Shown here one piece after another: positions 10,920-31,027 of a stretch of 64,000 bases of DNA. This DNA comes from Eledone cirrhosa (Eukaryota). The stretch's first letter is position 1. Every line of letters begins with the position of its first letter. Made by a program: the position numbers and the translations under genes. The notes beneath the pieces are model-generated. The model ran no database searches. It was not told the origin of the DNA and saw only the letters and a program-made list of their open reading frames with translations. The stretch lies in NCBI GenBank assembly GCA_964016885.1, contig OZ024743.1, forward strand, positions 180,482,001 to 180,546,000, in the 5' to 3' direction.

Positions 10920-11108
10920 CGCCCTTGCATTTGGCAAAAACAATGTGCAGGAGACCCATGTGTAGACCCCAAGAAAGAGGGTTAGATAACAGCTATGAGC
11001 TCGGTTGCTTTTGCTGGGGGATCTAGCCGGATCAGTTGGAGACGGTTGTTTCTGACAGGAACCGCTGGAAGGGGTGTTTATGGATTCTGATCCCATGACC
11101 CTCTCAGA

Positions 11109-11143
<35 letters not shown>

Positions 11144-11156
11144 TAATAATAATAAT
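10920..11156 (+). mobile_element. Decayed RTE-type LINE 3' end with (AAT)n tail
   Basis: Translates RRPMCRPQERGLDN..GI*PDQLETVVSDRNRWKG, resembling the RTE C-terminal RPxGRP..W.D..DR..W; runs directly into (AAT)n at 11109-11156. Confidence 0.55.
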
Positions 11157-25813: not shown

Positions 25814-27482
25814 GTTATTTGTCCTTTGCTGTTTGTCCTCTGTTGTTTGTCCTTGCTCTGATGCCCTTGACCATTATGCTGCGAAAAGTGAGAGCAGGAT
25901 ACAAGTTGGGAAAGGGAGAGCTTACCATCAGTCACCTCCTCTTCATGGACGATCTTAAGCTCTTCGGGAAGAGTGAGAAGGAGTTGGATGTGCTTGTTGA
26001 CACTGTCCGTATTTTCAGCAGTGATATATGTATGCAGTTTGGTATTAGTAAGTGTGGAGTCATTGTGATGAGGAGGGGTAGGTTGAGCAAAAGTAACGGA
26101 ATCCAGATACCAACAGGTGAGATGTTAAAGGAAATTGACTCTGAGGAAGGATACAAGTATTTGGGCGTTCTGGAGGCTGATGGCATAAAGAACAAAAAAA
26201 TGAAGGAATTGTTAAGAACTGAATACATTCGGAGAGTAAGGAGCGTATTGAAGTCACATCTGAACAGCAGAAATGCCATAAGCGCAGTAAATTCCCGAGC
26301 TGTGTCTATTATTAGGTACAGTGCGGGAATTCTGAGATGGAATGTTGCTGAACAAAAAGAAATGTATAGGAAAACTAGGAAGCTATTGACTATCTACAAC
26401 ATGTTCCACAAGAGGAGTGATGTCGATAGACTCTACCTAAGGAGATCTGAGGGTGGAAGAGGTCTTATCAGCATAGAGGACTGTGTTCAGATGGAGAAAA
26501 ACAACCTATACATATACGTGACTGATAGTAAGGAGCCAATGCTCAGAACTGTACTGAAGGGTGGGACAATAGGCCAGGGGATGTCCAAGGAGGAAATAAC
26601 ATCAAGGAGAAAGAGCAGCCTTCAGGGAAAATCCCTTCATAGTACCTTCTTTGAGAAAACTGAATTTAGAGATCCACAGACATGGAACTGGTTGAGAAGA
26701 GGAGACCTCAAAAAGGCTACAGTAGGAATGTTAATGGCTGCGCAGGAGCAGGCCCTCAAAACGAAGTGGTTGAAACACCATATTTACAAGGAGGCGGCTA
26801 GCCCACTGTGCAGGATCTGTGGAGAGAGAGAGGAGACTGTGGCTCACATTGTATCCGAGTGTAAACACCTAGCCCAGACCCACTATAAGGGCTGGAGACA
26901 TGATGTGATGGGCAGGGTGATCCACTGGCACCTGTGCAAAGTAAACAATTTACCACATTCTGAGAAAGGGTATGAGCATAGGCCAGAGGCGGTGATGGAG
27001 AACGATCAGGTGAAGGTGCTGTGGGATTTTAGGATACAGACGGACAAGAAACTGGAACACAATAGACCTGACCAGGTGGTTGTGGACAAAGAAAAAAGAT
27101 CATGTCTGATTGTGGATGTGGCCTGCCCATTCGACACGAGAGTGCTAGAGAAGGAGAGGGAGAAAATTAACCGATACCAGGACTTAAAGTGGGCGGTAAA
27201 AAGGATTTGGAAATGCCATGAAGTCAAAGTGATCCCGATTGTCATAGGCGCACTGGCGACTATCTCCAAAAGTTTCCAGAGATGCTTAAAGAAAATCGGC
27301 CCCTTCACGCTTTTTGGAACGCTTCAAAAGGCATGCTTGCTGGGAACAGCAAGAACCCTCCGATACATCCTGAATATCTGAGGCTGCAGGTAGTGGCTTG
27401 TTATTCATTCCAACGGACTTTCCAGTTAACCAACATCAATGACTGAGATTCAAGGAATAATAATAATAATAATAATAATAAT
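25814..27482 (+). mobile_element. R4/Dong-like family A, copy 3 (longest; open frame 25819-27381 from mid-RT to RLE)
   Basis: PLLFVLAL, HLLFMDDLKL, YKYLG, CRICG..HIVSEC, RHD, RPD; (AAT)n tail from 27456. Confidence 0.92.
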
Positions 27483-30400
27483 ATCAACTGGAAAAAGAAA
27501 CATCCCGAAAAAAGAGGCTATATTGACAGTAACAAACTAGCCAATATACGAAGAAATATTGTAAGAAAAAGTTACTAACTGATATAGAAATTGATCAGAT
27601 CAAGCTATTAGCACAAAGTCAGCGAATGGAAAATGAAACATGTGTCAGTGAAAACGAGGTAAATTGTAACACTTCGAATCCCAGGGTTGGGGCGGAATCA
27701 CTGACAACAGAACAAATTAAAGAAAGGATCGAAAAAGTGGAGGGAGTGCATGCTCAAGATGAAACTCAAAATGAAAACAATGAGATCGTAAATGATAAAG
27801 AAATGAATGAGAATGAACTTGCCAACTTGAAGGATGAAATTATGATCGAATGGATTAAAATGAAAGAATCTGACATGGGGGAACCAGACACCCTCCCTAA
27901 GATCCAAAACTCCAAACAGAACCAAAAGATAATACACAAGACTAACATAATTCTCAAAAACATTATCATCACAAACAAACTAAACATTACTGATTTAAAT
28001 CATCTCTATTATGCATCGGCTAAAGTCACCACTCACTTATGTGGAGTGGAAATGAAAAAACAAAGGAATTCCCACAAGAAATCTACTTGGCAAGAGAACA
28101 TCAATCGCCAAATAATTCTTCTCCGATCTGACATAGAAATGTTAACAAACTATAAAGTAGGTGAACATGTTAAACAAACTAAACTTAGAAAATTGAAAAA
28201 AAAGTACAGTATAAAATCAACATGTGACATAGACATGCTGATAGAAATAATCAAGCAAAAAGTGTCGGCCAAAGCTGTTCATATAAGGCGCTTTGAAAAA
28301 CGATCTAGATTCTATAAGGACAATAATATGTTCAAAAACAACCAAAGAAACGTCTACAGAAAAATTGGTAAGTCAACAATAACTGCTAAATCAATACCAC
28401 CCAAGGAGGAAGTGCAAGAATTCTGGGAAAAGATCTGTGCCGAAGAAAAAGTTCGTAACATACATGCCCCATGGATAGACAGACAAATGAACGATACAGC
28501 TCACCTTGAGGAACAAACATTGGAAAATATAACAGTTGAACAGTTGCGCTTGGCTCTAAGAAAAACCAGCAAATGGAAATCCCCAGGAAAAGACAAAATA
28601 CAAAATGTTTGGATAAATGCCTTCACAGAGTCTCATGAGCTGTTAGCCCAACTTTACAATGAAATAGTTAAGGAGCCAGAAAAGATACCTTCATGGCTAG
28701 TTAACGGCATTACATTCCTGCTTCCGAAGAATGATGAGACAAACAATCCCAAAAATTACAGACCGATAACTTGCTTGACCACAATGTATAAAATGTTAAC
28801 ATCAGTCCTAACTGAATACACATATGACCACCTGATAACAAATGACCTATTTCCCATTGAGCAGAAAGGGTGTAAACGAGGCTCATATGGCTGTAAGGAT
28901 CAGCTTCTGGTTAACAAAATGATACTGGAAGATTGTCATAATAGACACAAAAATCTATCGATTGCTTGGATAGATTATAAAAAAGCATTTGATAGTTTGC
29001 CACACAGTTGGATTGAAAAAATAAATAGAGATTTTCAAAGTATCCCCCGTTGTCAGGAGGTTTTTGTCATTCAGTATGAAGACATGGAAAACGACACTCC
29101 TTTTGAATAGTGAAACAAAATCACTGGAAGCTGGAGAAGTTAATATTAAGTGTGGAATTTTTCAGGGTGACTCTTTATCACCGCTTTTATTCTGCATCGC
29201 ACTTATACCATTAAGTAAAATGCTCAATGAAACAAAACATGGATATAAAGTCTATGACAAAACCATTAATCACCTGTTCTACATGGATGACCTGAAACTA
29301 TTTGCAAAAAATGATGAACAATTGCAAGGGCTATTATCCACTGTGAAGCAGTTCAGTGATGACATTAAAATGGAGTTTGGACTAGATAAATTCGCCAAAG
29401 CAACGTTCACCAGAGGAAAGCTGCTGAAGAGGTCAGACATTAATCTTGATCGGGGGAACGTGATAAGAGAACTTGATCAAGAAAAAACTTACAAATATCT
29501 AGGTGTTTGTGAAGGTGATGGAATCAAGCACTCGACAATGAGGGAAAGGATAAGGAAGGAATGTTACCGCAGAGTGAGAGCAATCTTAAAAACGGAATTG
29601 AATGCAAGGAATAGAATCGATGCCATAAACACGCTTGCCATACCAGTAGTAACCTACAGTTACAATGTCATCAACTGGTCAAGCACAGAGATCCGTAGGC
29701 TCGATACAAAAATTCGAAAATTCTTAACCATGCACAGAATGCATTACCCTAAGGCAGATACAGATAGAATATATCTCCCTAGGAAAGAAGGAGGACGTGG
29801 CTTAATCCAGTTAGACATTGCGTTGAAATCTGCAACAATTGGATTATCTACATATCTAAGGGAATCACATGATTGGATGATCAAACTCGTTTTGAAACAC
29901 GAAAGCATCAAAAGATCATACTCCATTACAAAAGATGCACAAAGATACAGTAATGGACTGCAAATTTCAGAAGTCCCATTTACTGCTGAAATGGAAAACA
30001 CAGAAAAAGCAAAGCAGGTAAAAGTAACTGCAGAGAAAGAACTGCTACAGAAACTGGCTAAGAAATGGCAAGAAAACCCTCTGTATGGAAAATACCCAGA
30101 ACGAGCTAACAATCCTGATGTTGACAAAACTTTAACACATCAGTGGTTGGCATCCTCTGGACTGAAATCGGAGACTGAAGGACTGATTATATCAGCACAA
30201 GATCAGTGTCTGCCAACAAAAAATTACCAAGCCAACATAATAAAAAAAATGGATGCAGCCCATTATGCCGTGTATGTAAAAAACAGCCAGGGACCATTGA
30301 CCATATAATTTCAATGTGCAGTCCTATAGCTCCAGCCGAATACCTAAACAGGCATGACAGAGCTGCACAATACATACATTGGATAATGTGTAAGCATTTT

Positions 30401-31027
30401 GACTTGTCCCATCAAAAGAATTGGTGGGAGCATCAACCACCTCCCATTTTGAAAAAGATCACATCTCAATCTTGTGGAACTTTATCATCCAAACAGACCG
30501 AAAAATAGATGCAAATAGACCTGATATAATATTGAAGGACTTTAAAAAGAGGGTATGCCTGCTAATTGATATGTCTGTTTCCAATAGACAAGAATGTATC
30601 TATAAAAACATTTGAAAAATTGAGCAAGTATAAGGACCTGGAGATAGAAATTGGAAAAATGTGGAAATTGAGAACTAAAACAATACCAGTGGTTGTAAGC
30701 GCTCTAGGAATGATACCTAAGAGGTCTAATGATTACTTATCGCAAATCCCAGGAAACCCGCGTATAGGAGAAATACAAAATATAGTACTAATGGGAATGC
30801 CCATTTACTAAGGAAGATTCTGTCAATATAAGTACATCACAAGTCTAAACACCTAAAGATGCATGTGTGAGTATGTATGTTCTTTCTTGAACATGGCGGA
30901 CCTTGTTGTCTCTTGAGGCCACTGGTTGTGACTTGGTGATAACTCGTATAAACATAAAGCAAGATAAATGCAGCTGTAAGAAGAAGAAGAAGAAGAAGAT
31001 GAAGATGAAGATGAAGAAGAAGAAGAA
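27483..31027 (+). mobile_element. R4/Dong-like family B, copy 4 (longest; N-terminal region + RT + RLE, frameshifted), (AAG)n tail
   Basis: ORFs 27626-29110, 29064-30308 and downstream fragments; WKSPGKD, YRPITCL, YMDD; tail 30978-31027. Confidence 0.92.

Follow-up and report, generated by a model that had tools for sequence, protein, structure and literature searches.

The 64-kb window (the whole stretch of Eledone cirrhosa DNA analysed here) contains a chain of nine non-LTR retrotransposon copies that fill positions 11,109-31,027 with no unique DNA between them. The copies belong to two families with a restriction-like endonuclease (RLE), designated A and B, and to two families of the AP-endonuclease (APE) type, designated T and To; an older repeat, R, the putative RTE remnant of the initial annotation, adjoins them. 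In order along the window, the features are as follows.

10933..11108, + strand: 3' end of repeat R, cut by the chain near R's terminal GAATAAG motif
11109..11156, + strand: (AAT)16 tract, equal to the (ATT)n tail of To on To's own strand
11157..13670, - strand: To, 5'-truncated, 2.5 kb (RVT_1 E=1e-25, zf-RVT E=5e-8)
13678..14975, + strand: A1, 5'-truncated copy of RLE-type (Dong-like) family A (element 13,678-14,904), then (AAT)23 tail
14967..15234, + strand: B1, terminal 206 bp of RLE-type family B (14,967-15,172), then (TAA)21 tail
15228..16062, + strand: B2, 0.79-kb 3' part of family B (15,228-16,015), then (TAA)16 tail
16061..18606, + strand: B3, 2.5-kb 3' part of family B (16,061-18,581; RT, CCHC region), then (ATA)8.7 tail
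18601..19891, + strand: A2, 5'-truncated family A copy (18,601-19,839), then (AAT)15 tail
19892..25773, - strand: T2, full-length APE-type LINE of 5,882 bp, with ORF1, then ORF2 (APE, RT, zf-RVT)
25774..25836, unstranded: composite T2/A3 junction of (AAT)7, same-strand (ATT)9 and a 14-nt unit x2.6
25837..27483, + strand: A3, 1.6-kb 3' part of family A (25,837-27,453), then (AAT)9 tail
27481..30977, + strand: B4, the 3' 3.5 kb of family B, covering reference positions 1466-4932
30978..31027, + strand: (AAG)16.7 tract closing the chain on the right, as expected for the tail of the R copy that the chain interrupts

The chain thus holds three A and four B copies, all on the + strand, as well as one T and one To copy, both on the - strand. 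AAT-type tracts occupy eight of the nine internal junctions, the sole exception being that between To and A1, where a tract-free spacer of 7 nt is found. Copy order, strands and junctions agree with the initial annotation of this DNA, including its statement that all but one junction consist of (AAT)n. Two of its details require revision: the right boundary is an (AAG)n rather than an (AAT)n tract, and at least four families, not three, participate. Perfect AAT-type tracts of at least five units number ten in the window, every one of them within the chain, where perfect AAT-type repeat totals 345 bases. The (AAT)7(ATT)9 junction next to A3 is a feature for which the insertion model developed below does not account.

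In families A and B, a reverse transcriptase is followed by a CCHC motif and then by a restriction-like endonuclease, the translations displaying CxxC..H....C and then RPD..D..EK; within the chain, A3 retains the RT end, the CCHC and the PD..D..K endonuclease motifs. Among solved structures, family A is best matched by R2 proteins (E=5e-28), making its RT closest to that of R2. Taken by itself, its C-terminal stretch of 268 aa matches the endonuclease region of R2 (E=0.011), in an alignment that includes the PD..D..K residues; for the CCHC motif, correspondence with R2 is limited to a local alignment that is not significant. Pfam at E<=0.1 returned RVT_1 plus weak zf-RVT only, and no AP-endonuclease in either family, including the 300-500 aa upstream of the RT. 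Among the best 120 of 290 protein relatives, those that have a source name bear only generic ones, such as 'unnamed protein product'. A and B are therefore assigned putatively to the R4/Dong type, a name drawn solely from architecture and target.

The elements with which A and B are best compared are Dong of Bombyx mori, DongAg, DongBg and the ostracod Dong1/2, described as (TAA)n-specific RLE-type LINEs of the R4/Dong clade (PMC3812793, PMC7998251). Like these, A and B have a single ORF in which RT precedes CCHC and restriction-like endonuclease, lack an AP-endonuclease, measure about 4.9 kb, and carry (TAA)n both as a tail and before the 5' end. Their orientation is such that the repeat reads (AAT)n on the A/B strand, and family A tails open with imperfect AAC/AAT units. 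Among 12 precise starts of the GGGAAGAAGACG type, seven lie directly after (TAA)n, two after (TAA)n plus a few bases, and three after (GAA)n. In distinction from Dong, A and B have their first 685 nt in common at 85% identity despite proteins that are just 41% identical. Bombyx Dong is further reported to bear an HDV-like self-cleaving ribozyme at its 5' end (PMC3774820), whereas no such signal was found at the A/B-type 5' end: a scan of the full-length B 5' end against Rfam (E<=1) was empty, and folding of the initial 102 nt is not more stable than that of shuffled sequences (z = +1.58), pseudoknotted ribozymes being able to escape both approaches. Rfam on the whole chain likewise returned nothing relevant. 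A diverged N-terminal Myb/SANT-like domain is described for the R4/Dong clade in PMC7998251, where profile-profile search was needed to detect it; for the 792-aa N-terminal ORF of A, no Myb domain was returned by Pfam at E<=0.1.

The T element, whose positions 1-5882 are matched by many genomic copies, encodes a 657-aa ORF1, with a CxxC....H....C knuckle visible in translation, upstream of an ORF2 that contains an N-terminal Exo_endo_phos domain (Pfam, E=1e-13), RVT_1 (E=1e-28) and a C-terminal zf-RVT (E=1e-7). Human L1 ORF2p is the best solved-structure match of ORF2 (E=4e-53). In T2 itself the reading frames are split into several pieces. The initial annotation treated the two copies on the - strand as one 'Tx1' family; To and T2 are 80% identical, and hence constitute two families, T and the older, T-like To. 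Its view that two endonuclease classes are involved, by contrast, is borne out, with a restriction-like endonuclease in A and B and an AP-endonuclease in T. The protein relatives of T include no family name, only generic labels (a 'hypothetical protein' of Chara braunii and automatically assigned 'hypothetical protein' cluster names), and T and To may be described as L1/Tx1-type from their architecture and target only. Read along the element's strand, both terminate in (ATT)n, and their orientation is opposite to that of A and B, and each of the 15 T 5' ends displayed consists of (ATT)n followed by GGCGACC or GGCAACC. In these respects T resembles microsatellite-specific LINEs of the Tx1 clade, namely Kibi at (TC)n, Koshi at (TTC)n and crocodilian Tx1 families at (TTCC)n/(TTTC)n, which are APE-type elements with ORF1 and ORF2, one microsatellite target, fixed orientation and precise 5' ends (PMC4494074, PMC3812793). 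T differs from them in its use of (ATT)n, which is complementary to the repeat targeted by Dong.

Together these features make it highly probable that the chain arose through nine separate insertions, likely one at a time, with two kinds of LINE entering one (AAT)n/(ATT)n microsatellite from opposite strands. Support comes from the strand rule, in which RLE-type and T copies run in opposite orientations: all eight pairs in the window and 128 of 135 adjacent element pairs across sampled loci obey it, seven break it, and RLE-T neighbours are oppositely oriented in 58 of 59 pairs. Chains are also common elsewhere, with 51 of 59 focal copies residing in chains of at least two elements, 30 of 59 in chains of at least three, and 37 of 59 in chains that extend past the edge of the 10-kb locus.

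An alternative is that runs such as A1-B1-B2-B3-A2 were concatenated in a single integration, with the reverse transcriptase passing from one RNA template to another at the latter's (UAA)n tail. The R2 reverse transcriptase is capable of template jumping, the five truncated copies in question share a strand and follow one another immediately in head-to-tail order, every copy bearing a separate tail, and sequence identity by itself cannot tell a single event from successive insertions. However, the chains also contain T copies of the opposite strand in among the others, an arrangement impossible within one cDNA, and mean divergence is unequal between A and B copies. Moreover, the 128 concordant pairs comprise 49 RLE-RLE, 58 RLE-T and 21 T-T neighbours, close to the 47.5, 60.9 and 19.5 given by random mixing, such that same-class neighbours are not in excess. 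Concatenation in one event is accordingly regarded as unlikely.

Far less plausible still is local segmental or tandem duplication, in which the locus would have gained a second copy of a block such as Tx1-A-B, with divergence and trimming thereafter. The order T-like(-), A, B does occur twice, and A1 and A2 begin at nearly equal element positions (3676 and 3678). Yet the two T-like copies share only the identity given above and measure 2.5 and 5.9 kb, and near-equal truncation points are found between unlinked loci too (e.g., 2892/2892, 3126/3127, 3866/3871). The A copies of the window are 93.6-94.5% identical to one another, versus a median of 95.4-95.7% to unlinked copies, and the B copies 95.8-96.0% versus 96.8%; the nearest relatives of the window copies lie elsewhere. 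Since the copies are no closer to one another than to unlinked ones, block duplication is rejected, and the original claim that the chain is not a simple segmental duplication holds. The accompanying claim that truncations differ from copy to copy is correct in general, with the exception of the nearly coincident A1 and A2.

Divergence of the copies also bears on their order of arrival. T2 has a median identity of 98.9% to 27 genomic copies, the B copies stand at about 96.8% and the A copies at about 95.5% to other genomic copies, while To is 89-95% identical to nine other To copies (alignments >400 bp). Judged in this way, the order of insertion would have been To (oldest), then A and B, then T2 (youngest).

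A last alternative holds that AT-rich DNA is hit in general, that the AAT tracts are merely the elements' own tails, and that neighbours arise by chance or regional clustering. The background is indeed AT-rich with long (AT)n tracts, and a 3' tract alone proves nothing because every copy carries its own tail; the window nevertheless has no A, B or T copy inside its large (AT)n tracts or anywhere else outside the chain. Flanking sequences were surveyed at 98 loci (60 element-centred and 40 repeat-centred, minus two redundant), the element loci being best-scoring matches, so that young copies are favoured. Consistent with the proposal that genomic copies are mostly (AAT)n-flanked, the repeat directly follows the 3' end in 60/62 A, 36/37 B and 65/66 T copies. 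As a negative control, (AAT)n followed the 3' end of R in none of 20 fetched copies. More tellingly against indiscriminate insertion, the repeat also directly precedes full-length 5' ends, in 32/34 cases for T, 10/13 for A and 6/9 for B (16/22 for A and B combined). Many 5'-truncated copies, on the other hand, have a 5' junction without repeat, as recorded for 19/63 A, 15/48 B and 35/53 T. Missing 5' repeats stem partly from elements split by the annotation, the To/A1 junction of the window being one such case.

The reciprocal survey started from the repeat: 40 (AAT)>=11 tracts, leaving out those preceded by T, were systematically drawn from the first 36 Mb of one contig (C1), where tract density is 2.8 per Mb versus 5.2 per Mb averaged over the genome. 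Of the 40, 31 adjoin an A, B or T copy, 16 of them on both sides, and nine lack an annotated element, whereas chance adjacency would affect some 0.1% of random positions (a rough estimate from copy numbers). With the repeat-preceded 5' ends, this excess and the near-constant RLE-T orientation, an absence of target specificity can scarcely be entertained. Instead, the characteristic orientation of each kind and the shared genome-wide flanks indicate that A/B and T likely both aim at the AAT repeat, from opposite strands.

How sequential insertion into such a repeat might proceed can be outlined from the standard model of target-primed reverse transcription. For A/B insertion, the endonuclease would cut the (ATT)n strand, the freed end serving as primer on the (UAA)n tail of the A/B RNA; for T insertion, the cut would fall in the (AAT)n strand, with priming on the (AUU)n tail of the T RNA. 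Every insertion would divide one tract into two while its tail brought new repeat units, and we infer insertion into a pre-existing tail. With tracts split and units added, a locus once hit would offer more targets to both kinds and keep growing. That each insertion regenerates a target, as was initially proposed, receives indirect support from the total of perfect repeat in the chain, 345 bases against at most 108 bases (36 units) in the longest of the 40 focal tracts.

The chain's own origin probably lies in the AAT-like end of R. This family is represented by 2,940 candidate copies, 81-86% identical, all stopping at the same point, and (AAG)n follows the R 3' end in 13 of 20 fetched copies. 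The (AAG)n at the right edge is thus R's own tail, which places the chain inside the 3' end of an R copy.

R1 and R2 provide a precedent for APE-type and RLE-type lineages in one multicopy niche; they occupy two different fixed sites in 28S rRNA genes, and the target is not recreated, unlike the present one, a repeat supplied by the tails of the elements themselves. A further parallel is offered by TRAS1 and SART1, both AP-endonuclease elements of one clade (R1), which build mixed arrays. As described in PMC7265360, these Bombyx mori elements are telomere-specific, enter (TTAGG)n repeats in opposite directions and have interchangeable EN domains. The families described here similarly comprise two LINE kinds that enter one short tandem repeat in opposing directions, but differ in that the A/B and T endonucleases are unrelated and in that the target is an interstitial trinucleotide microsatellite on all large contigs. 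The initial comparison to telomeric retrotransposon arrays stands as an analogy but does not extend to a chromosome-end or telomeric-repeat location: unlike HeT-A/TART and TRAS/SART arrays, A, B and T copies are spread across all large contigs, and the window lies mid-contig, at 180.5 Mb of a 378.8-Mb contig. While (TAA)n targeting by Dong-type elements is already known, neither an APE-type LINE with (TAA)n/(ATT)n as its target, the partner on the complementary strand, nor mixed RLE/APE chains were found in the literature searched, with Repbase Reports and subscription papers outside its scope.

On balance, and with some reserve, we favour a broader reading in which an APE LINE of the L1/Tx1 group is strictly specific for the complement strand of a Dong-type target, the two machineries feed each other, most long AAT microsatellites of this 3-Gb genome are products of the guild, and islands grow by preferential attachment away from genes. 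Because the target is carried as a tail, hit loci would turn into better targets, a simple route by which mobile elements may create safe landing zones for themselves and extend them. The action of a restriction-like and an AP-type endonuclease on the two opposite strands of one trinucleotide repeat would also constitute a natural system in which to compare how unrelated enzymes read the same DNA. Finally, the frequency with which sampled tracts adjoin an element suggests that most long (AAT)n microsatellites here are by-products of retrotransposition, an origin that bears on their use as markers and on genome assembly.

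The chain at window positions 11,109-31,027 is composed of nine non-LTR retrotransposon copies placed end to end, drawn from two families of the restriction-like-endonuclease (RLE) type, A and B, and two of the AP-endonuclease (APE) type, T and the related To, with an older, putatively RTE, repeat (R) at its edges. The map derived from Tandem Repeats Finder, self-BLAST, and direct reading of the junction sequences, after which the window was annotated with natural full-length genomic copies, agrees almost base for base with that of the initial annotation. The latter's statement that all junctions but one are of AAT type is likewise confirmed, such tracts being carried by 8 of the 9 internal junctions, and both its observation and its interpretation of a chain in which insertions regenerate their own target hold.

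Components of the chain in window order, with the sequence following each
10,933-11,108: R remnant, then (AAT)16
11,157-13,670, minus strand: To, then 7 nt without a tract
13,678-14,904, plus strand: A1, then (AAT)23
14,967-15,172, plus strand: B1, then (TAA)21
15,228-16,015, plus strand: B2, then (TAA)16
16,061-18,581, plus strand: B3, then (ATA)8.7
18,601-19,839, plus strand: A2, then (AAT)15
19,892-25,773, minus strand: T2, then (AAT)7(ATT)9
25,837-27,453, plus strand: A3, then (AAT)9
27,481-30,977, plus strand: B4, then (AAG)16.7, ending at 31,027

All 10 of the perfect AAT-type tracts of at least 5 units in the 64-kb window fall within the chain, and annotation with full-length copies found no A, B, or T copy in the rest of the window. 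At the junction of T2 and A3 (25,774-25,854), (AAT)7 is followed directly, on the same strand, by (ATT)9 and then by 2.6 copies of a 14-nt unit overlapping the start of A3; this is the sole site in the chain at which the repeat violates the strand rule described below.

Families A and B are classed by their sequence as RLE-type LINEs because Pfam searches detect RVT_1 with only a weak zf-RVT and no AP-endonuclease in the 300-500 residues upstream of the reverse transcriptase (RT), because their translations contain a CxxC..H....C motif followed by RPD..D..EK, and because R2 proteins are the best solved-structure relatives of A (E=5e-28). The C-terminal 268 residues of A alone match the R2 endonuclease region (E=0.011); the alignment of its CCHC stretch with that of R2 is local and non-significant. 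Full-length copies of A and B measure approximately 4.9 kb, and all 14 long copies examined, 7 of each family, lack an unbroken open reading frame. In natural full-length copies (loci L024 and L008), the first 685 nt of A and B are 85% identical, with no likeness at the DNA level beyond this point; the window copies, being 5'-truncated, are without this part. Set against an identity of only 41% between the RT-endonuclease proteins, this similarity suggests that a 5' module has been exchanged between the families. Among the best 120 of 290 public relatives of the A protein, most are 37-51% identical to it over 97-100% of its length and, with few exceptions, comprise some 1,220-1,350 aa. Most of the 120 lie on assembled contigs of merely 4-5 kb, roughly the size of a single element, as would be consistent with assembly breaks in the microsatellites on either side.

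Family T encodes an ORF1 of 657 aa with a zinc knuckle and an ORF2 of 1,139-1,152 aa bearing Exo_endo_phos, RVT_1, and zf-RVT domains, the best solved-structure relative of which is human L1 ORF2p (E=4e-53). ORF2 is unbroken in 3 of 12 full-length copies checked, the window copy included, and one of these 3 also has an unbroken ORF1; T2 itself is full length with broken reading frames. To, 80% identical to T, is an older family. Protein-level searches also reveal more diverged RT-bearing elements, both Dong-like and T-like, whose proteins share 23-55% identity with those of A, B, or T, at window 49,757-50,260 (plus strand) and at genomic loci including L006, L027, L052, L057, and L065; the guild numbers more than four families.

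Targeting was examined across the 3.0-Gb assembly, in which a first look gave at least 538 candidate copies of B, 2,603 of A, and 3,668 of T. Two samples were retrieved: 10-kb loci surrounding the 20 best-scoring matches of each family (A, B, and T), and 5-kb loci surrounding 40 (AAT)≥11 tracts taken at fixed steps through the first 100 tract starts of one contig (C1). Two redundant loci were removed from counts: L044, which duplicates L043, and L070, which overlaps L017. The initial annotation had proposed (AAT)n flanks as a check, and the repeat is present at most 3' ends and most full-length 5' ends. Specifically, it lies directly 3' of 60 of 62 A, 36 of 37 B, and 65 of 66 T copies, reading (ATT)n on T's own strand. 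Since a 3' tract could be merely the element's own tail, the 5' side provides the real test of targeting, and here the repeat precedes 32 of 34 full-length T, 10 of 13 A, and 6 of 9 B copies. In each of 15 T starts inspected, (ATT)n runs directly into GGCGACC or GGCAACC. Twelve full-length A/B copies share a GGGAAGAAGACG-type start motif (one A copy reads GAGAAAAAGACG), located right after (TAA)n in 7, separated from it by a few extra bases in 2, and after (GAA)n in 3. As a negative control, (AAT)n comes after 0 of 20 copies of R, an unrelated family, and (AAG)n after 13 of the 20. [quoted passage not shown]

The orientation of the elements follows a simple rule: with the repeat read as AAT, RLE elements have the same orientation as the repeat and T elements the reverse. 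Where adjacent pairs are defined as neighbors no more than 150 nt apart, the rule is kept by 128 of 135 pairs in the fetched loci and by all 8 window pairs, and pairs joining an RLE element to T face opposite ways in 58 of 59 instances. Chains of at least two elements hold 51 of 59 independent focal copies and chains of at least three hold 30, only 8 being solitary; 37 chains run past the edge of their 10-kb locus. In the sample taken by tract, 31 of 40 long tracts adjoin a copy annotated as A, B, or T, 16 of them on both sides, and 9 adjoin none. Starts of V(AAT)11, that is (AAT)11 after any base but T, number 15,613 in the genome. A crude estimate from the 40 tracts (9 free, 15 terminal, and 16 internal), too small a sample, is approximately 3 elements per chain, with a spread exceeding Poisson.

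The flanking tracts and the strand rule are direct observations. Under target-primed reverse transcription, an RNA ending in (UAA)n would have to be primed by the (TTA)n strand and one ending in (AUU)n by the (AAT)n strand, so that, given the presumed RNA tails and nick sites, the two endonuclease classes would nick opposite strands of one repeat duplex. Every insertion would then leave repeat at both its own sides, usable next by either class. An abundant SINE-like repeat ending ...GGCCTTGTGCCTAAAGTAGAAACA(ATT)n has one copy at window ~57,150-57,200 (minus strand) and 25 others among the fetched loci. Over its final ~24 nt it is similar to T and To at their 3' termini, with CCTTGTG...AGAAA in common; it may be T's non-autonomous partner and supply seed (ATT)n tracts.

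That Dong elements target (TAA)n is established, with reports covering insects, molluscs, cnidarians, and an ostracod (PMC3812793; PMC7998251). The Dong-like half of the present system, A and B on (TAA)n, is known behavior. Microsatellite-specific elements of the Tx1 clade known to date target (TC)n, (TTC)n, and (TTCC)n/(TTTC)n (PMC4494074). The nearest functional parallel to opposite-strand use of the AAT repeat by RLE and T elements is provided by TRAS1 and SART1, described as inserting into (TTAGG)n in opposite directions (PMC7265360). An octopus repeat annotation of 2026 records recently active Dong-R4 and L1-Tx1 families, the portion available making no mention of a shared target (PMC13282606). 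The literature searched, Repbase Reports and subscription journals lying outside it, yielded neither an APE-type LINE with specificity for the complement of Dong's target nor mixed chains. What looks new is the opposite-strand APE partner, together with the occurrence of mixed chains across the genome; the clade names R4/Dong and Tx1 are putative.

Runs of same-class elements could instead have been produced in one event via template jumping. The 128 concordant pairs comprise 49 RLE-RLE, 58 RLE-T, and 21 T-T neighbors, close to the 47.5, 60.9, and 19.5 expected from random mixing, which argues against this explanation. Block duplication of the chain is rejected, as the initial annotation had held: identity among the three A copies of the window is 93.6-94.5% and each has a median identity of 95.4-95.7% to 32 unlinked genomic copies, and the three longer B copies show 95.8-96.0% mutual identity versus 96.8% to 31 unlinked copies. 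Being less alike mutually than to unlinked copies, the window A and B copies are each independent offshoots of their own family. A1 and A2 start at nearly coincident element positions (3676 and 3678; window 13,678 and 18,601). Unlinked A/B copies, too, have truncation points that fall only a few bases apart (e.g., 2892/2892, 3126/3127, and 3866/3871); because the truncation site is A-rich, microhomology with the repeat during 5' joining is a likely cause. Two T-containing loci approximately 0.6 Mb apart on contig C2 (L043 and L044) have identical flanks and an identical adjoining B fragment, and represent a segmental duplication that carried along a chain.

Ordering the insertions by divergence, as had been proposed, places To first (89-95% identity to nine other To copies in alignments >400 bp), followed by A (~95.5% to genomic copies), B (~96.8%), and T2 (98.9% to 27 other T copies), a spread indicating that the chain grew over a long period. 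Perfect AAT-type repeat in the chain totals 345 bases and the longest of the 40 focal tracts is 36 units, or 108 bases; repeat units must therefore have been gained along with insertions. R, with at least 2,940 candidate copies in the genome, normally ends in ...CTCAGGAATAAGTGGGCG(AAG)n. At the left edge of the chain its 3' end is broken near the terminal GAATAAG motif, the AAT tract starting exactly at AATAAG, and at the right edge lies (AAG)n (30,978-31,027) of the kind normally terminating R. Together these edges indicate that the whole chain lies within a single R copy's tail region, where it probably started at the AAT-like motif of R.
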